The notes under the pieces: model-generated
The model's database searches: none
Told to the model about the DNA's origin: nothing
The model's input: the letters and a program-made list of their open reading frames with translations, nothing else
DNA from: a virus
Lineage: Duplodnaviria; Caudoviricetes
Strand: one strand, 5' to 3'
IMG/VR virus record: IMGVR_UViG_3300033153_003825
Coordinates: 1-54,332 of that record
DNA: 54,332 nucleotides
Shown here: positions 1 through 39,321 of the stretch, piece by piece
Position numbering within the stretch: position 1 is the stretch's first letter
Layout of the letters: each line of letters begins with the position of its first letter
Translations under genes and position numbers: made by a program

Positions 1-144
1 CACCAAGGAACGGTTGGTTGGCCTCTTATCCTTTTCAGTGTCAAAGAGCTTCTGGATCGTACCATAGGGCGGGGGTCAACCAACTATTCTGGTCCATATC
101 GAGTAGCGGAAAGAGTCGGAACTTACGCGGAAAGAAGGGAACGA

Positions 145-429
145 ATGGATCACCCCTCCAAGTCTAATCCCACAATCAATGTGGACGGTTTTGTCTTCTG
201 GAATGTCCCTCCGCCCCGTATGAACGAAGTCTACGCCCACCTGAGTTCCCTCCTTCCATCAAAGTGCGTCGCGATCATGCACGTCCGTCACAATTTTAAC
301 TGCCCGTCGATCGAGAAGGGTGGGATGCCGGATTGCACCTGTAAGAAGGTTGATCTGGAAATTGAGGTTGATGGCGGTGTTGAAGTCGATGCTTCGCTGG
401 CCTCCTACATCATCAAGGAAGGCAACTGA
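145..429 (+). CDS. hypothetical phage protein (Cys/His-containing)
   Basis: 94-aa ORF, AAGGGA RBS, TGATG overlap with next gene. Confidence 0.55.
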   Translation: MDHPSKSNPTINVDGFVFWNVPPPRMNEVYAHLSSLLPSKCVAIMHVRHNFNCPSIEKGGMPDCTCKKVDLEIEVDGGVEVDASLASYIIKEGN

Positions 430-14471: not shown

Positions 14472-15671
14472 ATGCCCGGAGGATTTGAGTCGGGCCTGAG
14501 ATTGGTTGAGCATTATTTGGGCAGGGCGTCTGCTACGAAGCAGACAAGGGGTGTTTTTCCAACCCTGTCCTCTGGTCCCGAAATCAACATTGGCAGAGCA
14601 ATCCGCAATGCTGAGAACCGGATTACCGGGACTGCCGCTCAGGCCGCGAATACAGTCAGTGTTCACGGGACGTTCCCAACGGCGTCCATCACAATGGATG
14701 CAAGGCCGGAGGATATGATCCTCCCCCTGATGTCCTTCTTTCACAACCGCAAGTACACTGTGATTTCACAGGGTACGGGTGGCCCTAGTTCGTATTCGAC
14801 CCCATGGACAGAGACGGGCACGTTCCAGTTTGGTATGCTGGACGCGAAGCCCGATCACACTGGGGCCGTCATTGGGGTGTACGACGATGGTGCAGCCTCC
14901 TACAACGAACAGGTAGAGATGTCCGACGTTTACTCTATTGGTTTAGAGTACCTGTACGGCCATGGAGACTTGGGCGATGCGGACAACGCCGCGTTCATCG
15001 AGAACTTCGTCTCTAACATGATTCGGTTTGAGGTGACACGCGGAATCGACAACTACCTCCTCTTCACGTTTGCCGGTTTCGGTCGCACGGGCGATGAGGT
15101 AGCAGATGTCGTGGAGGCTACGTGGGGTCCGGGGACCAACGGTAACTATTCGGACCAGTCCGTGTTGACTCCCGAGGACATGACTCTCACAACCTTAAAA
15201 CTCAACTCTGCGGACGTGTCTTCGACGTTCGAGCCCTGGCTGGATTCGCTGACCATTGAGATGACCAATGGCATCGAGGGTCGTGACGCTTTGGGGTTCG
15301 ATGAGTTTAATGCTCTTGCCACCGCTGGTCGCCCATCGGTTACGGGTACGATTGGCATGAGCCACATCAGCAGCGAGTTCCTAGATGCGCTGGCGGCTGG
15401 ACAGAAGTTTGAGTTGACGGTCGAGTTCACAAATGGCACCAATCAGGATTTGACCATCACTCTACCCTACTGCAAGTTCCATGAGAGCTTCAACCCTACT
15501 TCTGGGGATGTGGGTGCCGACGTGACCCTGGAAGCGCCGTTTAGAGCGGTGATAGACCCCAGCGTGGTGAAACCGTTGGCGGAGGTGCAGTTGGACACGC
15601 TTTTCGATGTTCGTACCAACAGCTTCTTCCTGGCGACCACATTGGCGGACGCGGCGACGTACATCGCTTAG
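14472..15671 (+). CDS. major tail tube protein
   Basis: LTIEMTNGIE...GRPSVTGTI...LTITLP...TLEAPFRA tail-tube motifs; upstream of the chaperones. Confidence 0.8.
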   Translation: MPGGFESGLRLVEHYLGRASATKQTRGVFPTLSSGPEINIGRAIRNAENRITGTAAQAANTVSVHGTFPTASITMDARPEDMILPLMSFFHNRKYTVISQGTGGPSSYSTPWTETGTFQFGMLDAKPDHTGAVIGVYDDGAASYNEQVEMSDVYSIGLEYLYGHGDLGDADNAAFIENFVSNMIRFEVTRGIDNYLLFTFAGFGRTGDEVADVVEATWGPGTNGNYSDQSVLTPEDMTLTTLKLNSADVSSTFEPWLDSLTIEMTNGIEGRDALGFDEFNALATAGRPSVTGTIGMSHISSEFLDALAAGQKFELTVEFTNGTNQDLTITLPYCKFHESFNPTSGDVGADVTLEAPFRAVIDPSVVKPLAEVQLDTLFDVRTNSFFLATTLADAATYIA

Positions 15672-20620: not shown

Positions 20621-23600
20621 ATGAGATCGGTCAGCAGCGCCATCCAGGCCATTCTGGACGCCGACCAGAGTCGACCCGTAACGGTCGTTAAGCTCACCCT
20701 GGTCGATGCGAGCGCCACCGTGATCTACGCGGCCACCGCTGCGGTGACAATCTCAAGCCAGGCATACCAGGGCGACCTGCTGGAACTCCCGCGTATTGTC
20801 GTTAGTGCTCAGGAGGGAATAGACCACATCGTTCTGAGGTTCGCCAACGCCGACTGGGCATACTCTTCCTACCACAACACGAACGACTTTGACGGGGCCA
20901 CGGCGGAGGTAAGCCAGTATTTCGCCACAAACGCCGCCTACACCACGTTCGAGGGGCCAGTAGCCCTCTTCAGCGGGACGATCTTCAGGCCAGAAGTCAA
21001 CGCTGAGGTGCTGACGCTGAACGTCATGGCCGACGCACGGATGGCGAAGGGTGGCAGCGTCGGTCGCGTCGTGACGAACCACTGTGGTTGGGACTTCGGT
21101 GACGTGGACTCGAACTGCGGGTACGTCGAATCAGCCACGGTCACGACAGGTGGTGCCTACACCCAGTCAACATGGATTCCCATTACAGGTTCGGCTGAGA
21201 CAGGGCAGGCTGGTGTTGCTCTTGAGCCATCTGATTATCCGTCCAACTTCGTCAAAATCGTGCGCGGCGGGAGCCCGGTCTACACGGACCTTCGGGTGAT
21301 TGAGGCGGACCTAGCCAACGGGCAGATCAAGTTAAACTCAACGCTTATCTGGAGCGGTACCCTGGTTGCTGGTGACAAAATCATTTATCAGGGGTGCCCC
21401 AGGGACACGATCCGCGAGTGTGGGCGTCGCTGGAAGTTTGCAGACTCCTCCCGACAGCAGGACAAGTTCGGTGGTATGGACTATTTCCGGGAGCAGTTTG
21501 GTAGGGCCGAGCCAAAGCAGGGAACCGTTGCCCAAATGGAGGGCGTGGTTGGGCACATCGTCCCGATCCCCTACGGCACACGCTGGACCACGCCGATGAT
21601 CGTGGGAGTCCACTCTAGGGCCGGGGGTGGCACAAAGGACTGGGCCTCATGGGGCACGGATCGCGACGGGCCGTTCGCCGTCTGTGTGATTGGTGAAGGC
21701 CCCCTTGATACTGGCCTCGAAGACGTCGAGGCCAACGTACTTCTCGATGGTGCGGAGATCCGGGCAAGCAAGTATTACGTGAATCAGGGCTGGGAAGATA
21801 AGTTCGAGATTCTAACTGGGACCACGTCTCAGGTACCGGCGGACTTCTTTCCGAAGTGGGACAGAAACAAGGCAATCCCAGGGTTTAGCGCACTTCGTAA
21901 CGTCGGGTATTTCATTATGGAGCTACCCGAAGGTTATGAACTGACTCCCCAGGTAACAAACACCGTGTGGGAAACCCTCCCGCAAGACTTTGGCGCTTGG
22001 ACCTTTATCCCAGGCGGGGCTGTCTCCCTTATACGCAGAACTCGCTACTGGAGCACACAGGTACCCGATGTCCAGTGTATGTATAAGGGGAAGAAGGTTC
22101 GGAAGTACGTCTACTCGGGGAGTAACCCTGTCAGTGGCGCGTATGAGTTTTCAAGGAATCCGGTGTGGCAAATCCTCGACGTTTTAATAGCACCCTACCG
22201 AGAGGACACCAGCGACCGTTGGTCTGCTGGCCTATCCGCAAACGCGGTGGATTTTGGTTCTTTTATCGATTGGGGCGACTACGCTGAGGACACGATTGGT
22301 GTTTACGATTTTGACAACAACTCCATCAATGTTGAGCGGTACCGTTCAGACCTCTATGTGAAGTCCGGCAAGCGCGGTGAAGTGTTGAAGATGCTTCTCC
22401 ACGCCTGTCGTGGAACGCTGGTGGCGAAGGACGGCAAGGTCGGCATTGTGCTAGACGCCCCCACTGGAGGGAAGGGCACGATCACCGGGGCCACCTCCAC
22501 GGTGATTACGGAGAGCACTAGGACCGGCCTAGTAGACTCGACTTGGCCTGACGGTGGGGTAAGCGGGCTTCTCACTGGGATGAGGGTCAAGATCCTGACG
22601 GGGACGGGCTCTGGGCAAGTAAGGACCATCGCCTCGAACACGAAGAACACCTTCACAGTCTCTTCGGCCTTCAGCCCAACCCCAAGCGTCGGCGGGACCT
22701 TCGCGATCTACGCCCTGGAGCTTACCACAGACAACGTGGGAGTGATCCAGGTACGGCACAAGAAGGCCCTCCATGAACTCACCAACCAGATAATCGCGAC
22801 CTGGCAGTCTACAAAGGATCAAGGCAGGAACGCTTCGGTTCCGATCCCGGACACCTATGAGGATGACCAGACACCAGGAAAGTACCACTTTGACAAGTTC
22901 GGCCTGAACGAGAAAACGGTGGCGATGAACGCCACCACCGAGTGGCAGCAAGCCGTTCGGAACGGGTGGTACGAGCTTCGTAGGGAGTTGGACCACAACT
23001 TCGAGTTCATCATCAGTGACCTCAATATCGAGGGCTTGGTGCTGGAGGTCGGGGATCACGTCCTCATCAATCATGACATCAGCGGGATCTCCAATGAGAC
23101 GGCCCGCGTTGCACGTATAGAGGACGGCGGACAGGCGACGTACACGCTGGCTTGTGAGCTTACGAGGGATCATGTTTACCTCGACTACCCGACTGACGAC
23201 TTCGATTCCGTAGACATTTCGTCCACGCTCACGCCGCCTCACGGGGTTCCGCCTCATGTTAGTGGCGTCTTAATCGACCACTACGTTGAGTTGGATGGCG
23301 AGCAGCCCTTGGTTGTGGTGGACTGGGATCAGCCCGAGTGGCAGTACGCGAATTGGTCGGTTGTGGTGGACTTCCGATACCAGAATCCGAATACTTTGAT
23401 CTGGACCGCTTGGACCGAGTTGGGTATTTCGCGCACCAGGAAGATCACCTTCCGGGCATCCAGGATAGGCATGGTCGAAGTGAGGCCGGTCCTCTTGAGC
23501 GGTGCGGGGATTCGCGCCGACGACCACCTTGAAAACGGCACTTCCTCTGGCAGTAATAGCCCTACCACCTTAAACGACACGACCAAGGCGTGGGTTGTGG

Positions 23601-26600
23601 ATGAATGGGACGGCTGCGTTGCGGAGATCATATCCGGGACTGGGGCCGATGCAGACGATCCGATTCGGGAGATCGCGAGCAACACCGCCACACAACTAAC
23701 AGTCACTTCAAGCTGGGACATCACCCCAGACGGCACGTCGGTTTACGACATCTACGTGGCGGCTCCGGTGGTGCAGGAACAGATTACGGCTGGAATTGGA
23801 TACGGCTTCCCTTACCTGGACGAAGATGACGGCGACCTCTACCTGCATCCGGGATGGGAGCTTGGCCTGGGGTGCAAATACTTAGACTCCGACACTGCCC
23901 CCAGTAAGAACGACGTGGTCACGACCGGGTCCATCCTCTTGTCTGACGGTGCCCCCGAGGGGGGCACGAACATTCATACCTTTACGGGGGACGGGGAAGT
24001 ACGGTACGTCGGTATTGTCTACTACTTAGACGAAGCCTGTACGCAGGGCGAGAGCAACCTGACCATTCTCCGGCACACCTATCACGAGAAGGACAACCTT
24101 CCAAGGGTCGTCTGGTTCCCCTACATCCCAGACACGGTGGGAAAGGAAGGGGTCAGGTTCGTAGCCACTGACGACGGCGCTCAGGTGAACTTCGGGTATG
24201 CCGTTATTGATGAGGGCGCGGGGGATCCGTCGTGGCCGTCTGGGTACACGACCTCTGGCCTCACGTCAGACCCGTATGTGGAGGACGTTGAAGTAACAAA
24301 ACCGGCAGAGGGCGGTACCCGCAAGGTCATCGTCTTCAACTGCGTGGACGCCGAAGAGAATATGTATCGTCCCACGGACGACCCTGGCCGCGTCTACGTC
24401 GATGGAAACTCTTGGCCGAGTGGGTATTGCACTTACGACATTGAGCCCGACTACACCCCCGTAATCACGCCGCAGGCCATCGAAACGGACACCTTGTCTT
24501 GGCGCTTCCGGGTTAAGAAAACCAACATCGGCTCTGAGTCGTGGGATGCGATCTCGTGGAATGACGCCACCTCCGGTGAATACTCTGGGAACACCTTCGT
24601 TCCCCAGTACATGACCAGCTATACGATCGCTCCGACCGAATGCCTGAATGTGGAGTGTGTGTTCCTGCGGACTTCTGCGACGGACGATACGACACAGAAC
24701 GCATCCATGAAATCGGTAGCGATGCGCTTCACGATCTACCCATTCTTCGACACCGTGATTCCGACCGTTCAGGTGTACCTCGGTCAAGTGGGGTCGGTAG
24801 GAAACATTTACCTGGTCATCAATGACCCCAAGGGCTTTGTGGTCGAGACAGCATTTAAGGCGGTGGAGAACTGGGATGGCGAGGACTTCGACGACCCCAC
24901 AGACTTGACTTGGAACCGGGACACTTCGCAGCCCTACAACCTCACCGAGACGGTCAACCTGGGCGAGGACCACAACAGCCTTATCGCCTGGGCGGTGGGC
25001 TACGACCTGGACGATGGCAACGGTACGGTCTATGTCCAGGGGTCGAATGTTTACGACCTAGACAAAATTCCTGTTGTCTTTGGTGCCCTTCATGTGAACG
25101 CGGGTGGGTCCGTTTACCTGTCAATCAACGGGCGCGAGGACCTGAAGTCCGTTCAATACAAAACTTCCACCACCTCTATGCCTACCGACGTGACGGGCGG
25201 GACGGTGATTAACGGACGCTCCACAAGCACAGAAATCGAATCCAGCTTGGCCGACGACGCGACCCTTTACGTCCGCGTTCGGGGCTACAACGCAACAGGC
25301 GGTTCCGCTGGAGGTGGGGACGCTTCGACAGAGGACTGGTTCGGGCAGGTCACGAATCTACTGAGTTCTCAGGTTCCTACCGTTCAGCCCTACGCTTCAC
25401 AGAGCGGATCCACGGGGACGTTGGATCTTGTGGTTTATGACCCCGACAGCGTTCTTGTCGCCACCTCCTATGAGGCCCAGTCCGGGGGTGGTGATTTTGC
25501 GCTGGACGCTGACCCGGTGAACTGGACCGGGTACGACAATTCGTCACCCTACGATCTTGATTATGACGTCACTTTGGTTGAGGCTCACACGAGCTTCATC
25601 GCCTGGGGAGTGGCGTACAACCGTGGTGCCGGGGTGAAGTGGATCACCGGATCCCACACGTTCGACTTGAACATTATGCCTAGTGGTATGGGCACCTCCG
25701 TAGTCTACTCGAATGGTAACGCCTCTTGTGACCTGTTCGGTGATGAGGATACGGCAAGCTGGAAAGTCGCGGCCTCTACTTCGGCGTTCCCCAGTGCCAC
25801 AACTGTCAGAGCCGCTGGCGCGGACGATGGTCAGAACCTCACAGCTTCCGATGTGGGTACGCTTCTAACCGCTTCCAGCGGGGACACGATTTACTATTCC
25901 GCGTTTCCGTACTCTGCGGTGACTGGAGGGGGCACCGAAGGGTCGATTGTGCAGTTCATCGGGAACTACTTTGACGAGGACACGTCAACCGATCCACTGA
26001 CGCCGAAGGTGTTCGTAGTCCCCAGTCAGTCGGGTTCTACGGCCACGCTCAGTCTGACGATCCGGGATGAGTACCTGAAGGTCACGGACATAGAGAAGCG
26101 GACGAAACAGGGGGACGCGGCCTGGAGTTCCTGGACAGACTTGACAGGTGGTAGCGGGACCATCGGAGTAAACGAGGACCTGACCCGTTCCCAAACCGTA
26201 ACGATCGAAGAGAAGCACAACTCAGAGATAGGCATTCGGATCGAATGGACGGATGAGGAGAGCGCCAACAGGTATATCTACTTCAGTCATACCTTTGACT
26301 TGGACACGATCCCATCCGTAGTTTGCGGACTCTCCCTCACCCTCTCTCAGGCCCAGCTTGCGTGGATTGGTGACGAAGACCTGGCGTCCATCAAGTATCT
26401 GGTGTCCACATCCTCCATGCCCGCAGATGTGTCGGGCGGGACCTCGGCCAATGGGCGGAACGGCAGCGAGGAGCTTTTAGGTACGCTCACTCTGAATCAA
26501 ATCATGTACGTCCGGGTCCGGGGCTATACCAGCACTGGAGCCACGGGCACGGAGTCAGCGGAGGATTGGTTGGGTACGATCCGACGTGACTCCACGTTGA

Positions 26601-28870
26601 TGCCCACGGTTCAGGTGGTCGCTACCCAGACCGGAGCTACGGGCACGTTGACTCTCAATATCGAAGATCCCGACTCGAAGATGAACGCTACGTCTTTCGA
26701 GACGGGTCTTTCGCCCGACGCCGACCCGGTAAACTGGTCTGGATACGACAATTCGTCACCCTACGACACTTCCACGAACCCGGCGATCGAGGAGAAGCAC
26801 GGGACGGTCGTTCATTGGGGCGTCCGGTACGACATTGGGGATGGCAATACGTGGATCACCGGATCCCATTCGTTCGACATCGACGTGATCCCGATGCTCG
26901 TGAATTGCTCGCTTGCAGAAGCCGTGAACGAGGGCGATTGCTTCTTCGCATGGCAAGGTGACGAAGACACGGCGAGTATGAAGTACATCACAAGCACGTC
27001 GTCCATGCCGACCGAGGCGAACTTGGATGGCGGTGGAACGTCCGTGAACGGGCGAACCGGACTGACCATCATCGACTCGAACCTGACCGCAGGGGAAACA
27101 ATCTACATCAGGGCCAGGGCGTACAGTGCGACAGGGGCCACCGGGACCGCCTCGGCTGAGGATTGGACGGGCAAGTATATCCGAAGCGAGACGGAGATTC
27201 CAACTGTACTCGCGATCCCAACCCAGAGTGGGAACAATGCGACCGTCACGCTGACAGTCGAACATGCCGGGGGTGGTGTCACCGCGACGGCATTCGACCG
27301 ATCGAGCGCCAATCCGGCGATTGGTTACGACAACGTCAACGACGACCCGACGTCCTGGGATGTGTACGACAGCGGTGCGCCGTACACGTACTCGAAGACG
27401 TACACGGGTCTAATTATTCCAGGCCATTCCGTGAGGGTTTATTGGGCCGTTCGCTATGCGGTCAGCGGGACCGACAAGTGGATCATGGGCCTTTGTGAGT
27501 TCGATGCTGATAAGGAAGCCGAGATCCATTCGTGCACGTTCAGTTATGACTCCGATAATACAATCAACCTCCATGTCCGGGGTGACGAAGACTGCGAGAA
27601 CATCTACGTCACGGTCACGTCTAGCGGGATCGCGCCAGGCGATCCAACCAGCGGTTCAAATGATGGGAGCATCAACGCGAACCAAGGTACGATTCAGACC
27701 AGTATCACGGGCAATCAGGGTGACATGATTATTGCAAAGATCATAGGCTACAATAATGAAAGTTCGCCCGAGGCCGGTCCCGTTACTCAGTTCGTGGAGA
27801 TCCGTGGGGGCACTGAAAAGTTGCCGATTGAGGTGAAGCTGACCCCTTCGCAACCCACGGCAACGACGGGTCGCATGTATATCACCATCAGCGATCCAGG
27901 CTTGATCGTTCAGACGGTCAAGTACGCCAAGAAGACGGGCGCGGGGGACTTTGGTTCTTTCACGGACGTCGGGTGGGATTATAGCCCAGACACTATTGGT
28001 GTGGACGCTACGCTTCGTTTCTACGAAGACGTAGACCTTTTGCAGAAACATCAGGCCGGGCTTAAATACGAAATTGTCTACAAAGATCACAGTGGCACCA
28101 ACATAACAACGGAGGGTGGCTGGACCTTTGACGCAGACCTGACCGCTGAGATCCAAAGCATAGAAATAAACATTGAGGATGACGGTTCGGTCTGGGCGAC
28201 GGTGGTGGCTGACGAAGATGCGGCCAACATCTATCTGACCTGCTCGATTGACGCAGAGCCGAGTGCTCCAACTACGGGCGTTTACGACGCGACGGTCAGT
28301 GGACGCGAGGGCTATGTAAACACGACCAAAGACGCTACCGACTTTGAGCACGTCGCTTGGGTCAAGGTCGGCGCTGCGGACTCGGGTGGTGTGATGGGGC
28401 CGATTATTGAGGCGAAGATTCGGCGTCCTGGAGGAGAGGTCAGCAAGGTACTCAGGATAGCCTGTACGGGAGTGGTGCGGCGGGGGAATTCCACGGGGAC
28501 GTGGGCGAGTACCGCCGGATACACCCATCCCATGTCGGCTGATACCGTTACCACGGGATATGTTGGCATAGAGTTACCCCCCGGAGTTTTGATTACCAAG
28601 GCGTCGTGTCGGTTGTATGAGCTTAATTCGAGTAGTGTTTCCGCTTGGTCTTTTCATTATGCCACGGACACGGGGGCTGAGACATATTTGGCGGGCGGGA
28701 GTGGTTCTACGGGCTGGAACACAGATTACGATAACATTTCTCACGTCAGGAACCCCGACTACCATTATTATTTCTACATCAACTGCGATGCCGATTCTGT
28801 CAATACGAACAGCAGGTTTGCGTATGTGGAGTTGGAGTACACCAGTTACGATGTTGACGAAACCCTTTAG
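20621..28870 (+). CDS. giant tail tip/central fibre protein (gpL-like + gpJ-like hub + tandem repeats)
   Basis: Cys cluster CGWDFG..CG...GC....C...FGG; SRNPVWQILDVL; LEVGDHVLI; six ~200-aa repeats. Confidence 0.85.
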   Translation: MRSVSSAIQAILDADQSRPVTVVKLTLVDASATVIYAATAAVTISSQAYQGDLLELPRIVVSAQEGIDHIVLRFANADWAYSSYHNTNDFDGATAEVSQYFATNAAYTTFEGPVALFSGTIFRPEVNAEVLTLNVMADARMAKGGSVGRVVTNHCGWDFGDVDSNCGYVESATVTTGGAYTQSTWIPITGSAETGQAGVALEPSDYPSNFVKIVRGGSPVYTDLRVIEADLANGQIKLNSTLIWSGTLVAGDKIIYQGCPRDTIRECGRRWKFADSSRQQDKFGGMDYFREQFGRAEPKQGTVAQMEGVVGHIVPIPYGTRWTTPMIVGVHSRAGGGTKDWASWGTDRDGPFAVCVIGEGPLDTGLEDVEANVLLDGAEIRASKYYVNQGWEDKFEILTGTTSQVPADFFPKWDRNKAIPGFSALRNVGYFIMELPEGYELTPQVTNTVWETLPQDFGAWTFIPGGAVSLIRRTRYWSTQVPDVQCMYKGKKVRKYVYSGSNPVSGAYEFSRNPVWQILDVLIAPYREDTSDRWSAGLSANAVDFGSFIDWGDYAEDTIGVYDFDNNSINVERYRSDLYVKSGKRGEVLKMLLHACRGTLVAKDGKVGIVLDAPTGGKGTITGATSTVITESTRTGLVDSTWPDGGVSGLLTGMRVKILTGTGSGQVRTIASNTKNTFTVSSAFSPTPSVGGTFAIYALELTTDNVGVIQVRHKKALHELTNQIIATWQSTKDQGRNASVPIPDTYEDDQTPGKYHFDKFGLNEKTVAMNATTEWQQAVRNGWYELRRELDHNFEFIISDLNIEGLVLEVGDHVLINHDISGISNETARVARIEDGGQATYTLACELTRDHVYLDYPTDDFDSVDISSTLTPPHGVPPHVSGVLIDHYVELDGEQPLVVVDWDQPEWQYANWSVVVDFRYQNPNTLIWTAWTELGISRTRKITFRASRIGMVEVRPVLLSGAGIRADDHLENGTSSGSNSPTTLNDTTKAWVVDEWDGCVAEIISGTGADADDPIREIASNTATQLTVTSSWDITPDGTSVYDIYVAAPVVQEQITAGIGYGFPYLDEDDGDLYLHPGWELGLGCKYLDSDTAPSKNDVVTTGSILLSDGAPEGGTNIHTFTGDGEVRYVGIVYYLDEACTQGESNLTILRHTYHEKDNLPRVVWFPYIPDTVGKEGVRFVATDDGAQVNFGYAVIDEGAGDPSWPSGYTTSGLTSDPYVEDVEVTKPAEGGTRKVIVFNCVDAEENMYRPTDDPGRVYVDGNSWPSGYCTYDIEPDYTPVITPQAIETDTLSWRFRVKKTNIGSESWDAISWNDATSGEYSGNTFVPQYMTSYTIAPTECLNVECVFLRTSATDDTTQNASMKSVAMRFTIYPFFDTVIPTVQVYLGQVGSVGNIYLVINDPKGFVVETAFKAVENWDGEDFDDPTDLTWNRDTSQPYNLTETVNLGEDHNSLIAWAVGYDLDDGNGTVYVQGSNVYDLDKIPVVFGALHVNAGGSVYLSINGREDLKSVQYKTSTTSMPTDVTGGTVINGRSTSTEIESSLADDATLYVRVRGYNATGGSAGGGDASTEDWFGQVTNLLSSQVPTVQPYASQSGSTGTLDLVVYDPDSVLVATSYEAQSGGGDFALDADPVNWTGYDNSSPYDLDYDVTLVEAHTSFIAWGVAYNRGAGVKWITGSHTFDLNIMPSGMGTSVVYSNGNASCDLFGDEDTASWKVAASTSAFPSATTVRAAGADDGQNLTASDVGTLLTASSGDTIYYSAFPYSAVTGGGTEGSIVQFIGNYFDEDTSTDPLTPKVFVVPSQSGSTATLSLTIRDEYLKVTDIEKRTKQGDAAWSSWTDLTGGSGTIGVNEDLTRSQTVTIEEKHNSEIGIRIEWTDEESANRYIYFSHTFDLDTIPSVVCGLSLTLSQAQLAWIGDEDLASIKYLVSTSSMPADVSGGTSANGRNGSEELLGTLTLNQIMYVRVRGYTSTGATGTESAEDWLGTIRRDSTLMPTVQVVATQTGATGTLTLNIEDPDSKMNATSFETGLSPDADPVNWSGYDNSSPYDTSTNPAIEEKHGTVVHWGVRYDIGDGNTWITGSHSFDIDVIPMLVNCSLAEAVNEGDCFFAWQGDEDTASMKYITSTSSMPTEANLDGGGTSVNGRTGLTIIDSNLTAGETIYIRARAYSATGATGTASAEDWTGKYIRSETEIPTVLAIPTQSGNNATVTLTVEHAGGGVTATAFDRSSANPAIGYDNVNDDPTSWDVYDSGAPYTYSKTYTGLIIPGHSVRVYWAVRYAVSGTDKWIMGLCEFDADKEAEIHSCTFSYDSDNTINLHVRGDEDCENIYVTVTSSGIAPGDPTSGSNDGSINANQGTIQTSITGNQGDMIIAKIIGYNNESSPEAGPVTQFVEIRGGTEKLPIEVKLTPSQPTATTGRMYITISDPGLIVQTVKYAKKTGAGDFGSFTDVGWDYSPDTIGVDATLRFYEDVDLLQKHQAGLKYEIVYKDHSGTNITTEGGWTFDADLTAEIQSIEINIEDDGSVWATVVADEDAANIYLTCSIDAEPSAPTTGVYDATVSGREGYVNTTKDATDFEHVAWVKVGAADSGGVMGPIIEAKIRRPGGEVSKVLRIACTGVVRRGNSTGTWASTAGYTHPMSADTVTTGYVGIELPPGVLITKASCRLYELNSSSVSAWSFHYATDTGAETYLAGGSGSTGWNTDYDNISHVRNPDYHYYFYINCDADSVNTNSRFAYVELEYTSYDVDETL
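24761..28430 (+). repeat. six ~600-bp/200-aa tandem repeats inside the tail-tip protein
   Basis: units start at 24761, 25376, 26003, 26603, 27200, 27824 (P.V....Q.G...L...DP ... FD.D ... G.ED...). Confidence 0.8.
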
Positions 28871-31253: not shown

Positions 31254-32648
31254 GTGGCAAGTGTGCGTCTAATAACGTCGGAGATCATTACATTCGCTTG
31301 GACAGGAAGCGAGTGGGCGGACGATGTTGCGCTCATTGTCACTCGTGACGATGAGGTACTTGTTGTGTTGGTAATTGGGTCTCAAACTCCTCCTACAGAA
31401 GTTCGGTGGGATGGTGCGGTCATCTCCTACCAAGATGACCGGAACGATCAGAATGTTGGTGGCATAACGTGGTTCGACAAGATTCAGCCGGAACCTGGGG
31501 CCTACAACCTGACTGTTGTTAATTCTTCAGGCGGTAGTCGCCGTCTGATTGTTCTAGGTGTCGGTGGTGTGGAACTTGCGGCCCCGCGAAGGTTGTTAAC
31601 GAAAGCTCCTGGATGGAGCGCATCCCCTGATATATCCTGTGAGTCCAGACCTGGCGATCTAGTCGTTGCTGTTGTGTCTACTGAGAATGTTCACACGCAC
31701 GACGCTGGACAAAACCCCCTGACAACTTCTGAGACGGCTAGTGGGGAATATGCAGGATCTGCTTATTGGGTGGCAACAAGTCAATCTACGTCTTTTGGCT
31801 GGAGTCAGGCAGCTAGTAACACTGCCAGAATGGCAATGGCTTATGCTGCTGTCCCCATCTTCCACCCCTACGGCACAACCCGCCGCCTGTCGCGCCCAGT
31901 GGTGGACCTTATCAAGCCTGCGCACTTGAATGTGCGCCCTGCGCTGGCACCTCCTGAATGGCGGCGGTTCCTGTCTGAACTTCATGCCGTAGCCGTAAGT
32001 TATGATGGAGTGGTCGTTACCCATCCTAATATCGGGACGATTGTTGTGCCACCCGACATTGAACAGGCTCCGTATGGGGAGGCGTGGGGGGCGTCGGATG
32101 GGACATCAAAAGTTGTGAGGCTTGCTACTTCTAGGCATCATCAGTATGGCTTTAGTGTCATAGCTCTCGTTCGCCACACAACCCTTTCTCAGGACTGTGG
32201 CATCTGGGGGAAAACGTCTCCAGACATAATGCAGTTTTGGTGGGATGTGGGAGAACAAGACCTTGGCCTGCAAGTGGACGGCGTTGCTTCCTATGGGGCG
32301 ACAGGGTTGCCTGGAGACACAGACTACCACCTCCTCGTCTTTCGTTATGGGCCTTCGGTAATACCTGGAACGAACACAGGCGAAGTCTGGTGCGACGGCA
32401 AGTTGCTTTTCGAGATCGACGACTCGTGTGGTTCTTCGACGGCAACAACTCGCTTCAATGCGACCGCAACGGATGATGCAAAAGATGGTAGGAATTTCTT
32501 CGTCTACGGTGCTGAAGTAAAATACTGCCTTACGGTGGAGGAGGTTTCGGCTCTCAGTGCCGATCCCTTCGGCCCTTTCCGCCGAGTCCGCACCATCCCC
32601 GTAGCTCGCGCGCCCCTGCCTGGTGAACGAAGGTGGGTGCGGCGATGA
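31254..32648 (+). CDS. fibre-associated protein with C-terminal LamG/concanavalin-like domain
   Basis: YHLLVFRY...VWCDGK...LTVEEVSAL..DPFG. Confidence 0.75.
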   Translation: MASVRLITSEIITFAWTGSEWADDVALIVTRDDEVLVVLVIGSQTPPTEVRWDGAVISYQDDRNDQNVGGITWFDKIQPEPGAYNLTVVNSSGGSRRLIVLGVGGVELAAPRRLLTKAPGWSASPDISCESRPGDLVVAVVSTENVHTHDAGQNPLTTSETASGEYAGSAYWVATSQSTSFGWSQAASNTARMAMAYAAVPIFHPYGTTRRLSRPVVDLIKPAHLNVRPALAPPEWRRFLSELHAVAVSYDGVVVTHPNIGTIVVPPDIEQAPYGEAWGASDGTSKVVRLATSRHHQYGFSVIALVRHTTLSQDCGIWGKTSPDIMQFWWDVGEQDLGLQVDGVASYGATGLPGDTDYHLLVFRYGPSVIPGTNTGEVWCDGKLLFEIDDSCGSSTATTRFNATATDDAKDGRNFFVYGAEVKYCLTVEEVSALSADPFGPFRRVRTIPVARAPLPGERRWVRR

Positions 32649-35236
32649 GCATAGATCGCATCAAACCGGCACCTTGGGACGTTCAGGCGGCTCTTGTGAG
32701 CCCTGCTTTTCGTGAACTCCGATACCACATTCGTAATGAGTGGATGATGTGGGAGGCTGGCGGAAAGAAGTGCTTCGATACTGGCTATGCCAAAGAAGAT
32801 GGGGTGTTCGGGGCTAATGTTCCATTGTGGGACACCGGACCTTACGGGTGTTGCTTGGATTTCCGGGATATTTCGGGGACAGCCTACACGGTGGATATTC
32901 CCAGCTACACGCCGGATCAACAAGGTTCGTGTGAGGTTTTGTATCTTCACCGAAATTCCTCCCGCCAGAGACTTTTAGGCTCTGGAGACGCTTTTGAGCT
33001 TCATCTTAGATGGGTAGATCCAAACAGTATTCATAACGAGTTCTTCCAGGGGGCTTCTGATGTAACGTCTGCATTCGGTGTTGCCATTGGTAATTGGTAT
33101 CACATCGTTTCTACCTGGGACTATGGGACCGGGGCGGCAAAAATCTACATCAATGGGGTCCTCAAAAACACCACCGCTTTTGCAGATGACATACCCGGAA
33201 CTGCTACCTTACAATTAGGGTTCCGCACCGGGAGTGCGTCCACCCTGGAGTTCCGGGGCAAGATGTCTTATGTCCGGTTTTATGATAAGCCGCTAACAGA
33301 TAGTGAGGCCCTACTTCTTTATGAAAACCCCTTCGGCCCGATCACCCGCGCCAGGGTGTTCCCGGTCAAGTATCAGGCACCACAGACGCGCATCCTCAGA
33401 CCGGGGCCAGTGGATCTGATTAAGCCAGCCCCTTGGGACGTGCAGGCGGGGCTAGTGGGAAAGGAATGGGGTTGGTTCTGGGAAGATATCGGTGCCTTTC
33501 TCCCATTCTGGGAGGGAGTAGGAAAGCCTGTTGATGTGGCCCGTGGTATCATTACCACATTCAATACGGGTGACGGGGCGGCACCTATTTGGGATCAGGA
33601 TGGAATGGGGCGGCGACTTACGGCAGACGCTATTGGCTCGGAAGTTGACCTAGATCAAACCCTCACGGACATCGTAGGCGATGATGATTTTTTCATCGCT
33701 GCTTTGTGGTCGCCATCCACTCAACTTACTTCAATGGTTGTGTCGTCTGGTCTTGACCTCACACATAACCTTGGCATGGATCGTGGAGCTACTGGCAACA
33801 TCTTCGCTCGGGCTTTTGGCAACCAGGTCCAGAACGCAGGAAGTTTTTATGTAGCTGGCGATATACTTTTAGCTGTGATGTCAACCGCCGGTCAGGGAGG
33901 GGCTCTCACTTTGGAGTGCCGGAACCTGACAACTGGGGCACGGTCCCGAAACACCGGCACGGCTGGCACAACGGTCCCGTCTGGAGTTGCGCGGGTATTC
34001 CGTAGGGCTGCCAACACCTACGAGATGCAAGGCTCGGTATATTGGGTGGCTCTGGGTAGAGGTCTTCCAACGAATGACGCCCTTACCGTCTTTGTCGATC
34101 AACTTGCCAGTGACCCCTTCGGCCCCTTCCGTCAGGCTCGCTCCATCCCGGTCCCCAAGGTTGAGCCAACCACCCGTATCCTGCGGCCAGCGGTGAATGA
34201 TGGGATTAAACCGGCTGAGTGGGATGTGCAGGCGGGGCTGGTTGATCTGGAGTATCGGAAACTTCATGATGGCCTGATTCTGGGGGTGCCTTTCTGGGGC
34301 AGCCATGTTAAGGACGGTGGGACCCTTGAAGACATAAGCCAGTTTCAACGTATTTTGACGATAGATAATTCATTGTCCGGGTTAGCTATTACAGACACCC
34401 CTTCGGGGCGAGCCGTTCAATTCAGTGGTGACGATACAAATGACCGGATAGGTTTGGGCTCCATCCCGTCTACCGATCCGCTGTCTTTGTCTGGGACCTC
34501 TGCGGCCACAATAGCCTTTTGGGTTCGGCCGAATGCGTTTGGTTCCTGGCCTGGTGGGTCTATTAGAGTAATCGACAAATCCAATGGGGCTGGGACGGCT
34601 AATGGCTGGGCGGCTGCGATGTATAACTCTGGGTCGGCTCGCTACGTCCTTTTGGTGGAAAACTCCGGGTCGGAATTTTGGGAAGGGTGGTTAATTGACT
34701 CTTTCCTGGATGATTGGCACTTCTATTTGTTCCGCTGGGCTGGAACGGATATTGAGTGTTTCGTAGATGGCAAAGACCAGGGGTCGCCTGACGCAACCTT
34801 TGGGGCGAGCCCTCCGGGGTTGCCAGCTTCTACGACCACCACCAACGCCGCTATCGGTAACTGGAATCATGAAATTGACAAAAACTTCTCTGGGGACATG
34901 GGGACGGTTTATGTTTGGGATCGTGCCCTTAGTGACAGTGAAATCCAAGCCCTCGCCACCGACCCCTTCGGCCTCATCCGTCGCGCCCGATCCATTCCGG
35001 TGCCTGCGCCTACTGTCACGGTTTCGGACCTGGAGCAGACGCTTGAGGGCTTCCGTTGGCGGAATGACGACGGTTCCGAGAGTGCGGCGACGTGGGCTCA
35101 AGTGCAGGATGCGTACCATACGATTGGCGTTGACGGGGAAACCCGACTTCGCATCGTACTCCAGGCACCCGAAGGCGGACAGCTCCAATTAGATTGTGCG
35201 AAAGACGGCACCGAAGATTGGTTCAAGGTGGACTGA
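32645..35236 (+). CDS. triple LamG-like domain protein
   Basis: WYHIVSTWD...IYINGV...FRGKMSYVRFYDKPLTDSE; FSGDMGTVYVWDRALSDSEI; ATGA overlap gives start 32645. Confidence 0.85.
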   Translation: MSIDRIKPAPWDVQAALVSPAFRELRYHIRNEWMMWEAGGKKCFDTGYAKEDGVFGANVPLWDTGPYGCCLDFRDISGTAYTVDIPSYTPDQQGSCEVLYLHRNSSRQRLLGSGDAFELHLRWVDPNSIHNEFFQGASDVTSAFGVAIGNWYHIVSTWDYGTGAAKIYINGVLKNTTAFADDIPGTATLQLGFRTGSASTLEFRGKMSYVRFYDKPLTDSEALLLYENPFGPITRARVFPVKYQAPQTRILRPGPVDLIKPAPWDVQAGLVGKEWGWFWEDIGAFLPFWEGVGKPVDVARGIITTFNTGDGAAPIWDQDGMGRRLTADAIGSEVDLDQTLTDIVGDDDFFIAALWSPSTQLTSMVVSSGLDLTHNLGMDRGATGNIFARAFGNQVQNAGSFYVAGDILLAVMSTAGQGGALTLECRNLTTGARSRNTGTAGTTVPSGVARVFRRAANTYEMQGSVYWVALGRGLPTNDALTVFVDQLASDPFGPFRQARSIPVPKVEPTTRILRPAVNDGIKPAEWDVQAGLVDLEYRKLHDGLILGVPFWGSHVKDGGTLEDISQFQRILTIDNSLSGLAITDTPSGRAVQFSGDDTNDRIGLGSIPSTDPLSLSGTSAATIAFWVRPNAFGSWPGGSIRVIDKSNGAGTANGWAAAMYNSGSARYVLLVENSGSEFWEGWLIDSFLDDWHFYLFRWAGTDIECFVDGKDQGSPDATFGASPPGLPASTTTTNAAIGNWNHEIDKNFSGDMGTVYVWDRALSDSEIQALATDPFGLIRRARSIPVPAPTVTVSDLEQTLEGFRWRNDDGSESAATWAQVQDAYHTIGVDGETRLRIVLQAPEGGQLQLDCAKDGTEDWFKVD

Positions 35237-35239
35237 TCC

Positions 35240-38200
35240 ATGACCCAGTATGCCCGCCCAGATAACGATGACAGCAACCCAGGGGGATGGAGCCCTGCGG
35301 TTGGCGGGACGTTGTATGGCGAACTAGACGAGGTCACACCCAGCGACACGGACTACATCGACGACAATAGCGTGGGCTACTGCGAGGTCGGCCTTTCCAG
35401 CGTCACCGACCCGGCAGTAGGTACCGGCCATGTTGTCAGCTACCACTACCGCCGCACCCCGACCAACCGTGCCATCACCATGCGGGTTTCGCTCTACGAC
35501 GGCACCACGCTCATCGCGGGTCCGTGGTCGCACGTCAATCCTGCTGGCACCTTCACACTGGTTGAACAAACCCTAAGTGAAGCCCAGGCCAATAACGTAT
35601 CGACGGCTGGCTATGCGGGTGCGCTTAAACTTCGTTTTGAGATAACGGCCCTTCAGAACTCACAGGCCCACGCCCAGTTCAGTTGGGCCGAGTTGGCTGT
35701 GCCGGATGCAGGTTCTACGCACAACGCCACCGCAGCCCTGACCTTACCTGCGCTGACCGCCTCCGGTGCAGCGACGTATTCGTCTGGGACAAATGACGCC
35801 ACAGCAAGTCTGACGCTCCCGGCCCTGACCGCTTCGGGGACCGCTACTCACACGGGACCGCCACACAACGCTACGGCCACACTCGTATTAGCCGCGCTCC
35901 TGATGGCGGGGACGGCGACGTTCACGAAGCCTGAGTATCAGGCGACGGGGGCGCAGGACCTACCCGCGCTGACGCTTAGTGCCACGGCGACTCACGTACC
36001 ACCTGACCACGACGCGACGGCCAGCTTAACGCTACCTGCGTTGACGGCTTCGGGGACGGCCACGTTCGTTGACACGCCGACGTTTGACGCAACAGCTTCG
36101 CTTACCCTACCCGCGCTCACGTTGTCGGCCACGGCTACGCATGTCGCGCCGATCGAGCTTTTTGATTCGACGTACATCACGGCGAGCGGTGAAGATACGA
36201 CCGAACAGCTTGCGGCTCCCGATGGTGCCGTCGCCTTCTCTGCTGGTCGGATTCAGGATGACGAGAACCCAGCCGATTCGATTGCCGCGAATGCTACGGG
36301 CTGGACGGAACTGGAATGGGCGATTAAGGCGCGGGAGCCTGCGGCTGGTGAAACGTGGAAGTTCCGATTAAGCCTGGATGGAACGCCTATTACGCTGGAC
36401 GTCACGCCAAAGTTGACGGTCACGGCTGGCTCTACGCACGACGCCACAGCCGCCTTGACGCTCCCAGCCCTGACGGCCTCCGGTACGGCGACCCACGCGA
36501 TTGCGGAGCGCCAAGCCACTGCGTCGTTCACCCTACCAGCCCTGGCCGCTGTGGGGACTGCGACATTCGTGAAGCCGGAGTTCCAGGCAACGGCAGCAGT
36601 CTCTCTGCCCGCGTTGACCGCGTCCGGTACCGCTGAGTTCCCGCACTCTCAGGGTTCAGCCACCCTTGACCTCTCCGCCTTAGCGGCCAGCGGTACGGCC
36701 ACCCACGCGATCGCAGAGCGTCAAGCGACCGCATCTCCGACACTACCTGCGCTCACGGCATCGGGCACGGCAACTTTCGTCAAGCCCGAGTTTCAGGCAA
36801 GCGCATCACTAACCTTACCCGCGCTAGAGGCGACGGGTACGGCAACCTTCGTAAAACCCGAAGTTCAAGCCACGGCGTCCCTGACGCTACCGGCCCTGAC
36901 CGCAACGGGCACCGCGACACACGCGATTTCTCCGTCCAGCGCGACGGCTACACTAGACCTACCTGCCCTGACCGCCTCGGGGACCGCGACCCATGCGATT
37001 GCAGAGAGAAGCGCGACAGCGGCGCTGAACCTTCCGGCCCTAACGGCATCTGGCGCTGCAACACACGCGATCGCCCCGTCTGACGCGACCGCAGCTCTAG
37101 ACCTACCGGCGTTGACTGCGGCGGGGACAGCGACCTTCACGAAGCCCGAAGTCCAAGCCACTGCATCGCTGACGCTGTCTGCGCTCCAGGCATCCGGTAC
37201 CGCTGAGTTCCCACATAGCCAGGGGACGTTCGCTCAGTCGCTACCTGCCCTGACAGCCGCAGGCACGGCGACTCATGTACCCCCAGGCCACGATGCAACG
37301 GCAGCGATAGATTTACCCGCCCTGACGGCATCGGGTACAGCAACCTTTGTGAAGCCGGAGTTCCAGGCGACGGCGAGCTTCGCGCTTCCGGCACTGACAG
37401 CGAGCGGCACGGCTGAGTTCCCGCACTCTCAAGGCACGGCGTCTCTTGCGCTGTCGCCGCTCCAAGCGTCCGGGACTGCGACATTTGTGAAGCCGGAGTT
37501 CCAGGCGGCGGCGTCCCTAACCCTGCCTGCCTTAACTGCGACGGGTACCGCGCAACACCCAGACCAGGCGAGCGCCGCGCTGGCACTACCCGCATTGACC
37601 CTCACGGCGACGGCGACCCATTCGCCGCCGACGTTCAGTGCCACGGCGGGCCTGAGCCTCCCTGCCCTCACCGTTGCAGGGGTGGCCGCGAACTCAACGA
37701 ACGATGCGACGGCCAGCTTGGTACTACCGAGTCTGACCGCTTCGGGCACAGCCTCTCATGTAGTCGCTGACAACGTGGGGCAAGCAAATCTAAACCTCCC
37801 CGCACTGACAGCATCGGGTACGGCGACGTTCCCGCACAGCAAGGGCACGGCCTCGCTTGCGTTGTCCGCTCTGACCGCTTCTGGCACCGCGACGTTCGTG
37901 AAGCCGGAGTATTCTGCGACAGCGGCGGTCGGCCTTCCAGCCCTGACGATGGCCGGGACCGCGCAGCACCCGGACCAGGCCAGCGCAGCCCTTACACTCC
38001 CGGCGCTTACGGCCTCCGGCACAGCTACCCATGTAGCGCCCCAGCATGACGCTTCAGCGTCCGTGGACCTCGCCGCCCTACAGGCATCGGGTACGGCCAC
38101 ATTCGTTAAGCCCGAGTACCAAGCCACCGCGTCGCTCGACCTCCCGGCACTGACCGCCAGCGGTGCAGCAACCTACGTTGAGCCGCCAAGCAACGCCTCA

Positions 38201-38539
38201 GCAGCCTTGGGCCTCCCCGCCCTGACCGCCAGCGGTACGGCGACGTTCACGAAGCCAGAGTTCCAGGCAACGGCGGCGATTACGCTTCCAGCCCTAACTG
38301 CCAGTGGTGAGGGTACACCGCTTTCGGGTGGGACAGCCGTGCTTGCCCTTCCATCCCTGGAGGTGTCCGGTACCGCAGGGTTTGTTCTCAATCCGACACT
38401 GGACGTAGACGCGACTCTAAGGCACAATCTCACGGTGGCGTCCAGTATCGAACATGATTTAGATGTGGACATGGGCGCATCTTTGAAGCATGATTTGAAC
38501 GTGGACGCCGAAATGAGGGACCAAGACGATGACAGCTAA
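35240..38539 (+). CDS. Ala/Thr-rich repeat fibre/scaffold protein
   Basis: 34 copies (manual count) of a 21-25-aa unit ATASLTLPALTASGTATxxxPxxx. Confidence 0.85.
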   Translation: MTQYARPDNDDSNPGGWSPAVGGTLYGELDEVTPSDTDYIDDNSVGYCEVGLSSVTDPAVGTGHVVSYHYRRTPTNRAITMRVSLYDGTTLIAGPWSHVNPAGTFTLVEQTLSEAQANNVSTAGYAGALKLRFEITALQNSQAHAQFSWAELAVPDAGSTHNATAALTLPALTASGAATYSSGTNDATASLTLPALTASGTATHTGPPHNATATLVLAALLMAGTATFTKPEYQATGAQDLPALTLSATATHVPPDHDATASLTLPALTASGTATFVDTPTFDATASLTLPALTLSATATHVAPIELFDSTYITASGEDTTEQLAAPDGAVAFSAGRIQDDENPADSIAANATGWTELEWAIKAREPAAGETWKFRLSLDGTPITLDVTPKLTVTAGSTHDATAALTLPALTASGTATHAIAERQATASFTLPALAAVGTATFVKPEFQATAAVSLPALTASGTAEFPHSQGSATLDLSALAASGTATHAIAERQATASPTLPALTASGTATFVKPEFQASASLTLPALEATGTATFVKPEVQATASLTLPALTATGTATHAISPSSATATLDLPALTASGTATHAIAERSATAALNLPALTASGAATHAIAPSDATAALDLPALTAAGTATFTKPEVQATASLTLSALQASGTAEFPHSQGTFAQSLPALTAAGTATHVPPGHDATAAIDLPALTASGTATFVKPEFQATASFALPALTASGTAEFPHSQGTASLALSPLQASGTATFVKPEFQAAASLTLPALTATGTAQHPDQASAALALPALTLTATATHSPPTFSATAGLSLPALTVAGVAANSTNDATASLVLPSLTASGTASHVVADNVGQANLNLPALTASGTATFPHSKGTASLALSALTASGTATFVKPEYSATAAVGLPALTMAGTAQHPDQASAALTLPALTASGTATHVAPQHDASASVDLAALQASGTATFVKPEYQATASLDLPALTASGAATYVEPPSNASAALGLPALTASGTATFTKPEFQATAAITLPALTASGEGTPLSGGTAVLALPSLEVSGTAGFVLNPTLDVDATLRHNLTVASSIEHDLDVDMGASLKHDLNVDAEMRDQDDDS

Positions 38540-38847: not shown

Positions 38848-39321
38848 ATGCCTGTATTCGGTGAGCGGTCCAGAAAGAAACGCGGCACTTGTCATCCGCT
38901 GCTCCAGCACACAGCGGACCTGGCGATTCGGTATTGGGACATCACCCTGATTCATGGCTTCAGGGGTAAGGAGCTTCAGAACGAGCTTGTGGCCCAAGGC
39001 TTCAGCAAGACGCCCTGGCCCACGAGCTTTCACAACCACCTTTCCACAAGTAAAGACGTAGCTGATGGGTTCGCTATGGCTGTGGGCGAACCTTTGTCCT
39101 TGGCCTTTGATTTCGCCCCGTGGTTCCCGACGCTCCCCCATGTCAGATGGAAAAACGGTGATGAGTTTTACCACATGGCTGGCCTGATAATTGGAGTGTC
39201 CAAGAGGTACTTGGAAGACTTTGGATTTCGGCTCAGGTCTGGTACGGACTGGGACAGCGACCAAGACCTCCACGACCAGACGTTTATGGACCTCGGGCAC
39301 CTGGAGCTAAGGCGGTTGTAA
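38848..39321 (+). CDS. endolysin, M15-family L-Ala-D-Glu peptidase
   Basis: CHPLLQ...GFRGKELQ...SFHN...SLAFDFAP...DLGHLEL Zn-peptidase motifs (T5 lysin-like). Confidence 0.88.
   Translation: MPVFGERSRKKRGTCHPLLQHTADLAIRYWDITLIHGFRGKELQNELVAQGFSKTPWPTSFHNHLSTSKDVADGFAMAVGEPLSLAFDFAPWFPTLPHVRWKNGDEFYHMAGLIIGVSKRYLEDFGFRLRSGTDWDSDQDLHDQTFMDLGHLELRRL

Follow-up and report, generated by a model that had tools for sequence, protein, structure and literature searches.

Several systems are known in which protein chains are joined through parts of a fold. In donor-strand complementation, which links the fibre subunits of chaperone-usher pili, residues of a neighbouring subunit complete an incomplete immunoglobulin-like (Ig-like) fold. 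A second group consists of proteins that are split in nature and come together again, for example split inteins and phage enzymes whose genes have been divided by mobile elements, and the SpyTag/SpyCatcher pair was engineered by splitting the CnaB2 domain. In cohesin-dockerin attachment and in the branching domains of multi-tailspike phages (T4 gp10-like), by contrast, two complete domains pair. A candidate for a further arrangement of this kind is present in the IMG/VR virus record IMGVR_UViG_3300033153_003825 (Duplodnaviria; Caudoviricetes), the entire linear sequence of which (54,332 bases, completeness estimate 87%) is the window analysed here. In this window, two adjacent open reading frames (ORFs), ORF A and ORF B, each carry one segment of what is predicted to be a single Ig-like beta-sandwich. 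The first segment (the N-half, or plug) ends ORF A, a LamG protein, and the second (the C-half, or socket) lies within the repeats of ORF B, a fibre-like protein. The reading favoured here, to which a probability of roughly two in three is given, is fragment complementation, in which the four C-terminal strands of ORF A complete a five-strand socket in ORF B and thereby anchor the lectin protein to the fibre past repeat 6.

The mechanism would be nearest to two of these systems, pilus donor-strand complementation and the naturally split proteins. Like the pilus subunits, an incomplete Ig-like fold would be completed by a neighbouring chain, and a chain of four genes at one locus (L168) resembles head-to-tail chaining. 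Unlike the pili, in which one strand is donated, the phage pair would donate four strands with ~67 residues, which make up ~40% of the domain, no chaperone or usher takes part, the pieces reside in phage structural genes, and the domain also exists intact or with nested inserts. As in naturally split proteins, one fold is laid out on two genes and would be rebuilt from two chains; unlike in split inteins, the joint is likely to be permanent and non-covalent, without splicing, and the products of the second gene (gene 2) have ordinary starts (MA... or MT...). A split intein was considered for the window itself and rejected, as no Hint or intein family was detected in ORF A or ORF B (Pfam, E up to 1) and the N-half fills ORF A to its last residue.

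The idea of a split sandwich as a connector is shared with SpyTag/SpyCatcher and with the CnaA-like isopeptide domains (CLIPPER/DUF11), the marks of which are a conserved Lys in an early strand, a conserved Asn/Asp in a late strand and a conserved catalytic acid. CLIPPER domains are described as containing a Lys-Asn/Asp isopeptide bond (bioRxiv 10.1101/2025.04.25.650565). The phage unit differs in that the conserved Lys is missing from both halves and no Pfam DUF11 match is obtained. A covalent joint was likewise rejected, since neither the N-half nor the C-half alignment (21 sequences each) holds an invariant or nearly invariant lysine, and a Lys-Asn/Asp bond is therefore not expected. In a structure search with VIA, the contiguous form of the unit aligned with the CLIPPER domain 9ifr at Z 8.0 (118 aligned residues, root-mean-square deviation (rmsd) 3.6), a score tied with many unrelated Ig-like domains. 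With cohesin-dockerin and T4 gp10-like attachment, the phage pair would have in common the modular hanging of exchangeable carbohydrate-active modules on a scaffold; the difference is that two incomplete halves would form one domain, and cohesins appeared only as weak fold matches.

Two segments of one unit

The features of the gene pair are as follows (positions in the window, strand, description).

32633..35236, +, ORF A: 867 residues; three LamG-like modules, then the N-half plug
35033..35233, +, N-half (plug): residues 801-867 of ORF A, 67 residues; predicted strands 1-4 of a ~170-residue Ig-like unit
35225..35231, +, Shine-Dalgarno-like AAGGTGG: within the final codons of ORF A and 8 nt ahead of the ORF B ATG
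35234..35236, +, TGA stop of ORF A: followed by TCC and then by the ORF B ATG at 35240, both ORFs being in the same frame
35240..38539, +, ORF B: 1099 residues; repeat-rich, fibre-like
35240..35719, +, N-terminal region of ORF B: residues 1-160 (MTQYARPDNDDSNPGGW...); without Pfam or PHROG family
35720..36148, +, repeats 1-6 of ORF B: period ~24 residues, core ..A(T/S)LTLPALTASGTAT...
36149..36436, +, C-half (socket): residues 304-399 of ORF B, 96 residues; predicted strands 5-9 of the Ig-like unit
36437..38389, +, repeats 7 to ~36 of ORF B: 26 cores found by regular expression past residue 400, spaced by 21-24 residues with two double gaps
38390..38536, +, acidic C-terminal tail of ORF B: LDVD...DQDDDS; no plug

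The LamG-like modules of ORF A open with IKPA.WDVQA at residues 10, 263 and 525, and the closing motif DPFGP/L is found at residues 494 (module 2) and 777 (module 3). The protein matches Pfam Laminin_G_3 (PF13385) in two stretches and above the gathering score (106.5 bits, cut-off 27.6; E 1.8e-30). An earlier note on this DNA, made from its letters, held that the LamG protein ends in the first segment, and it does: the C-terminal end reads LEQTLEGFRWRNDDGSESAATW...RLRIVL...QLQLDC...WFKVD and is followed by TGA, with nothing after the N-half. ORF B, for which no Pfam family was found at E < 0.09, contains about 36 repeats of ~24 residues in total; the nearest Atlas clusters of its N-terminal region (score 0.91-0.92) are unnamed viral proteins. 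Five of the first six repeat cores were located by regular expression (residues 167, 191, 215, 263 and 288) and a degenerate one, at about residue 239, by eye. The description of the repeat run as broken once, between repeats 6 and 7, was also borne out, with six cores before residue 304 and ~30 repeats after residue 400. The sole break is the C-half, which reads IELFDSTY...GRIQDDENPADS...TELEWAIKA...WKFRL...TPKLTV.

Neither segment is due to chance. A local N-half profile built from relatives has a single match in the window (independent E-value (i-E) 2e-28), as has the local C-half profile (i-E 8e-35), the next best matches in six frames having i-E >= 0.5 in either case; over the full 54,332-base record the N-half profile finds only the ORF A site. 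The window thus holds exactly one N-half and one C-half, on two ORFs, which makes it a split variant. Residues 801-867 of ORF A carry the N-half pattern FRWRNDDGSExxATW ... RLR ... W..V (strands 1-4) and all six of the six invariant columns of the N-half alignment. In the same manner, ORF B carries the C-half pattern S..I....TT.QL ... F..G.I.DD.NP ... YTE.EW ... Y.FRV ... TVTP..T (strands 5-9) together with every invariant column of the C-half alignment.

Each half was searched separately. The last 78 residues of ORF A matched 10 proteins among 86 candidates: the window's own product; P0004, a LamG protein that is the closest relative of ORF A (79% identical) and stops at the same residue; five more that end with the segment; and three that carry it internally, with a C-half-like segment 200-250 residues further on. 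Residues 300-402 of ORF B matched 45 proteins among 660 candidates, and in 23 of these an N-half lies 150-450 residues upstream in cis; 21 have none upstream, as ORF B, and one starts within the N-half. The C-half lies within a repeat array in the nearest ORF B relatives (P0013 and P0014) as well. P0014 and P0015, the closest C-half relatives after P0013, have a C-terminal N-half of their own, 62% and 49% identical to that of the window. In P0014 (633 residues) three pieces of split units are found in one chain, which starts inside an N-half-like unit and continues with a socket (residues 253-351) among repeats and a plug (residues 567-632). Because in these two proteins the plug is carried on the C-terminus of the fibre itself, it must have moved between cargo proteins in this lineage.

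According to the earlier note, the two segments occur consecutively in other phage proteins as one beta-sandwich, and the searches did recover such units: P0020, P0048 and many loci have tandem units in which the N-half directly adjoins the C-half. An alignment of 11 contiguous units was used as the reference, to which the N-half profile aligned at columns 8-80 (hhalign, probability 99.7, E 1e-25) and the C-half profile at columns 83-183 (probability 99.5, E 2.6e-23). The two segments of the window thus abut within one ~170-residue unit. The AlphaFold2 model of the contiguous unit, based on the 11-row alignment, is one all-beta domain, with a mean predicted local distance difference test (pLDDT) of 86.1, a predicted template modelling score (pTM) of 0.83, four strands in the N-half (5-15, 33-36, 41-50 and 55-66) and five in the C-half. 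In the VIA search, which does not rely on Foldseek, the best match of this model was 5vi0_A (Z 8.6, rmsd 2.8, 104 aligned residues), and every row was a single Ig-like PDB domain spanning model residues 1 to ~172. Foldseek found two PDB matches at E <= 0.001, the better being the CLIPPER domain 9ifr (E 3.6e-4, template modelling score 0.39/0.53), and none in BFVD at the same threshold. The unit is thus predicted to be an Ig-like sandwich with no narrower fold family assignable, because the best VIA Z of 8.6 falls within the range of common arrangements.

A single-chain protein of 412 residues with the order N-half, insert, C-half was also modelled (18-row alignment; pLDDT 81.1, pTM 0.77). The single-domain PDB chains that matched the contiguous unit, among them 5vi0_A (Z 7.5, 102 aligned residues), 9jdh_A, 7e2c_J, 5yot_A and 7wrk_A, span model range 1..407 with about 100-124 aligned residues, and further chains match residues 76-183 or 189-309. 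Since single-domain chains align over the range 1..407, it can be deduced from these alignment ranges that residues 1-70 and 313-407 would pack as one sandwich, from which a two-domain, jelly-roll-like insert is looped out. On these models, the contiguous and nested forms are both predicted to fold as one domain. In L045:9980-11215, the common nested insert (model residues 76-309) is predicted as two domains similar to jelly rolls or tumour necrosis factor. Its fold matches are weak and include the receptor-binding head of the lactococcal phage Tuc2009 (5e7f_G; Z 7.4, rmsd 3.6, 104 aligned residues) and the tail fibre of Haloferax tailed virus 1 (9h5b; Z 6.6). The common nested insert may be the receptor-binding part. 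Residues 1-303 of ORF B, which take the position of the insert in the window, are unrelated to it by blastp.

Distribution of split and unsplit forms

Among 1.84 billion proteins, the N-half profile matched 3720 representative proteins at E <= 0.001, 1865 of them at E <= 1e-10. In the best 150 of the 3720 matches, the chain most often ends within 6 residues past the N-half (81 proteins, with a median length of 285 residues; 78 contain no other part of the unit). The order N-half, insert, C-half is found in 26 and contiguous halves in 7; in 7 others the N-half is followed by no recognised C-half, and 29 have weaker repeats only, with no single stretch of at least 60 bits.

Gene order was analysed in 144 loci anchored on the N-half (64 viral, 80 from metagenomes) and in 40 viral loci anchored on the C-half, the stop-to-stop frames of which were scanned with the local profiles of both halves. 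Of the alignments used, one row (L073) was left out for a stop codon. The 144 N-half-anchored loci yielded 142 distinct N-half peptides. Contiguity with a C-half was seen in 38 of them and a nested insert in cis in 14. In 29 the N-half ends its ORF and a C-half stands on a later ORF; in 13 it ends its ORF with no C-half seen, 11 of these 13 having less than 1 kb of sequence left. A further 14 run off the contig, and in 34 the sequence that follows is not recognised by the C-half profile. In all 181 loci and the window together, 47 distinct N-halves stop within 12 residues, and 33 of these have 2.5 kb or more of sequence after them. Of the 33, 32 are followed on the same strand by a C-half that starts no further than 3.5 kb downstream; a C-half lies upstream in 3. 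Between the end of the N-half and the start of the C-half lie a median of 1014 nt (range 801-3020 nt), and 916 nt in the window. These comparisons show that the two segments are homologous to adjoining parts of one unit and that the genes carrying them recur as pairs in a conserved order.

The reciprocal test covered 31 distinct full-length C-halves. An N-half ends an upstream ORF in 15 and does so with a 16-residue tail in one; the halves are nested in cis in 10 and contiguous in none; and in five no N-half was found, three of the five having less than 800 nt upstream. With none of the 31 C-halves contiguous with an N-half, the window's high-scoring subfamily is always interrupted, the break being either an insert or a gene boundary. 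Homology by blastp (a cluster of 36 of 65 regions) links the insert nested in cis forms to the N-terminal part of gene 2 in the split forms and of C-half-only proteins. The same architecture hence occurs both fused and split, with the cut precisely where the N-half meets the insert.

Four forms of the unit were found altogether: contiguous, one chain with a nested insert of 150-450 residues, two adjacent genes, and three or four adjacent genes. In the listed loci with two genes, gene 1 mostly stops 0-3 residues past the N-half and gene 2 comes immediately next, the junctions being TAATG or TGATG overlaps or spacers resembling Shine-Dalgarno sites. In the three-gene form (L001-L005 and L010), the insert is a gene of its own of ~320 residues, and the socket of gene 3 begins at about residue 30. 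The boundary may also fall elsewhere: inside the N-half in L056 (9983-11211) and P0056, where gene 2 starts with MAYRLEY..., or inside the C-half, near profile position 52, in L008, L020 and L034. Two single loci can be added here. In L001:9374-12709 all three genes (plug, insert and socket) share one frame with single stops between them, and in L035:3630-4790 a boundary or insert precedes the last strand of the unit.

The most extended form is seen in L168:3267-14023, in which four successive ORFs have the order N* / C...N* / C...N* / C, where an asterisk marks the end of an ORF. Its halves are located as follows.

3618-3830, 6728-6925 and 9013-9195 of L168: N-halves
5258-5575, 8062-8367 and 10592-10837 of L168: C-halves

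Judged by this order, a daisy chain of fibre proteins is possible at this locus.

Like ORF A, 14 of the 78 plug-terminated proteins have Laminin_G_3, and in other phages the plug is attached to many unrelated domains, both LamG and beta-helix-like ones among them. Because the same plug is found on so many unrelated cargo domains, it is probably a portable connector for exchangeable carbohydrate-binding modules.

Predicted association of the halves and competing explanations

In fragment complementation, gene fission would have divided one Ig-like beta-sandwich between two adjacent structural genes. The 67-residue end of ORF A (strands 1-4) would then be an incomplete domain, the plug, and the 96-residue insert of ORF B (strands 5-9) its socket. 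The two products would be made separately, as ORF B comes with a Shine-Dalgarno sequence and an ATG of its own; plug and socket would subsequently co-fold into one sandwich, and the joint would fix one three-module lectin protein at a defined point on each fibre chain. The function of the pair would presumably be this attachment of the lectin protein to the fibre.

That the halves re-associate in trans had been proposed in the earlier note, which named co-folding as a check. The N-half and C-half of the window were co-folded with a 21-row alignment each and with three controls. The pair reached a score of 0.52 (runs of 0.50, 0.53 and 0.52), the best of the controls reached 0.00, contact agreement between runs was at least 95%, and the pLDDT of the partners was at least 67; the result is graded as weak support. 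In the calibration of this score, which applies here only roughly because custom alignments were used, the mark is reached by 58 of 80 solved complexes and by 2 of 110 mismatched pairs, and passing scores of 0.60 or less account for only 7 of the 80 solved complexes and for both passing mismatches. In addition, the halves of a split domain can pass through their likeness to solved single-chain sandwiches. The confidence of the individual pieces depends strongly on the partner: the pLDDT of the N-half falls from 72-74 with the C-half to 34-35 with an unrelated partner, and that of the C-half from 68-70 with the N-half to 38 when the N-half is replaced. In these models, such drops are consistent with two pieces that fold only together. 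Association in trans is thus predicted by modelling, and it fits the comparative data, with 32 of 33 plug genes paired and most pairs out of frame.

Several observations weigh against fragment complementation. The association in trans is a prediction with a weak complex score, and, on the calibration of the tool, most passes at the level of 0.52 are wrong unless there was good prior reason to expect the pair. ORF A and ORF B share one frame across a single TGA, as a readthrough fusion would require. One of the 33 plug genes with enough downstream sequence has no socket, and the C-halves of L149 and L174 have no N-half despite ample upstream sequence. The numbers of plugs and sockets are unequal in L072:147-6573, where two plug genes of ~280 residues (147-983 and 982-1851) precede an ORF of 1547 residues with a single detected socket; the two plugs may represent alternative cargoes for one site, or a divergent second socket may have been missed. 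Finally, with the plug on the C-terminus of the fibre itself in P0014 and P0015, the choice of partner is not fixed in the lineage.

Two other explanations have to be considered, both of which are judged unlikely. According to the first, the TGA at 35234-35236 is read through, and one chain of ~1968 residues is produced in which the halves fold in cis around a nested insert of ~300 residues, made up of the N-terminal region of ORF B and its first six repeats, so that no docking in trans is needed. It is favoured by the common frame of the two ORFs, with only TGA and TCC between them, by the frequency of single chains with N-half, insert and C-half (23 of 45 proteins and 10 of 31 C-halves), and by the nature of the stop, TGA being commonly held to be the leakiest stop codon. 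However, the AAGGTGG sequence placed 8 nt ahead of the ATG of ORF B argues for independent initiation, and TGA is an ordinary stop in this virus. It terminates 15 of the 52 ORFs of the window and the long ORFs are intact under table 11, by which recoding of TGA was ruled out. Nor is the in-frame layout conserved. Among the 36 plug-socket pairs the frame offset is 0 in 10, +1 in 8 and +2 in 18, so that 26 of 36 are in different frames and readthrough is not a general explanation. Of the 24 pairs with no more than 60 nt between the stop and the start of the socket ORF, only four (the window, L066, L075 and L076) are in frame, which is below the one third expected by chance. The 47 distinct N-halves that stop within 12 residues (from 181 loci and the window) use TAA in 28 cases, TGA in 15 and TAG in 4, and P0004 ends at the same residue as ORF A. 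In the window, where the frame is shared, a small amount of fused product may nevertheless be made.

The second explanation, held to be no less improbable, is that the segments do not pair at all: that of ORF A would be a small autonomous module with a different partner or role and that of ORF B an autonomous insert, the two co-occurring by descent from a fused ancestor. The weak complex prediction agrees with this, as do the unequal counts of plugs and sockets in L072 and the orphan sockets of L149 and L174. Nevertheless, each segment corresponds to only a part of one predicted sandwich, and the predicted pLDDT of either half drops as low as 34-38 without the other. Furthermore, 32 of 33 cases retain both the pairing and the gene order although the loci differ widely, and the gene boundary lies 0-3 residues from the end of the N-half in most of the listed loci. 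A non-functional remnant, with two halves in decay after a recent nonsense mutation cut a fibre gene that encoded one chain, would account for the single in-frame stop and is nonetheless very improbable, since the position of the stop is common to P0004 and to 81 of the best 150 representatives, all family-invariant residues are kept in both halves, and ORF B has its own start signals.

Fragment complementation thus remains the preferred reading for the window, and a broader proposition can be put forward, with the balance tilting only slightly in its favour. Uncultivated tailed phages may widely use a so far undescribed Ig-like plug-and-socket connector, in which the first four strands form a C-terminal plug of ~70 residues on exchangeable lectin or beta-helix proteins, the remaining strands form a socket in the fibre protein encoded by the next gene, and co-folding joins the chains. 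Within this scheme the joint could sit on either side of a nested receptor-binding insert, be spread over three genes, or be daisy-chained over four, as in L168.

If this is true, the connector would be a natural protein-fragment complementation system for modular host-recognition fibres, and receptor-binding modules would be seen to be exchanged without disturbing the fibre. Co-folding of the halves would amount to a general and so far unnoticed assembly rule for multi-protein phage fibres, by which the partner of a fibre protein could be read from sequence, with a C-terminal plug in one gene and a socket in the next. It would also account for the very common metagenomic phage proteins of ~280 residues that end in the FRWRNDDG segment, and the two halves might be of use in protein engineering as a small split-domain pair of natural origin.

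Occurrence in databases and genomic surroundings

No family covering the N-half or the C-half was found in Pfam or PHROG, and five plug-terminated proteins gave no informative PHROG match. The halves of the window (tblastn, E <= 0.01) and the consensus-like halves of P0118 and of L018 (the C-half of the latter; tblastn, E <= 1e-3) had no match in 50,697 GenBank phage records. The FRWRNDDG family is missing from Pfam, PHROGs, BFVD and these GenBank records at the sensitivities used, and it appears to have escaped study because no cultivated phage carrying it was found. A fibre domain split between genes was not found described in the portion of the literature open to full-text search, which is no proof that it is unpublished, and the string RNDDGSE had no occurrence in the literature searched.

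The unit is also present in cellular genomes. In species-representative prokaryote genomes, 107 hits were obtained, of which 47 are contiguous and 5 split, the carriers being mainly uncultivated Patescibacteria and Bacteroidota. Units resembling the N-half occur in very long ORFs of six cultivated Pontibacter genomes (L223, L224, L231, L235, L240 and L247). No other isolates are present among the 80 genome loci, and these six could serve as a cultivable source of the intact unit.

In the window, the genes surrounding the pair include the following.

6779-8545: large terminase
12122-13228: major head protein
14472-15671: minor tail protein
17378-20191: tape-measure-like ORF
38848-39321: endolysin, downstream of ORF B and one small ORF

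Given these neighbours, ORF A and ORF B are located at the end of the structural module, the usual site of fibre or receptor-binding genes. Between the tape-measure-like gene and the fibre genes lies an ORF of 2749 residues (20621-28870, +) without PHROG match (E <= 1e-5). Immediately upstream of ORF A, an ORF of 464 residues (31254-32648, +), which overlaps it by 16 nt and has neither a plug nor a PHROG match, bears the marks of an ORF A-type module, IKPA at residue 220 and DPFGP at residue 437.

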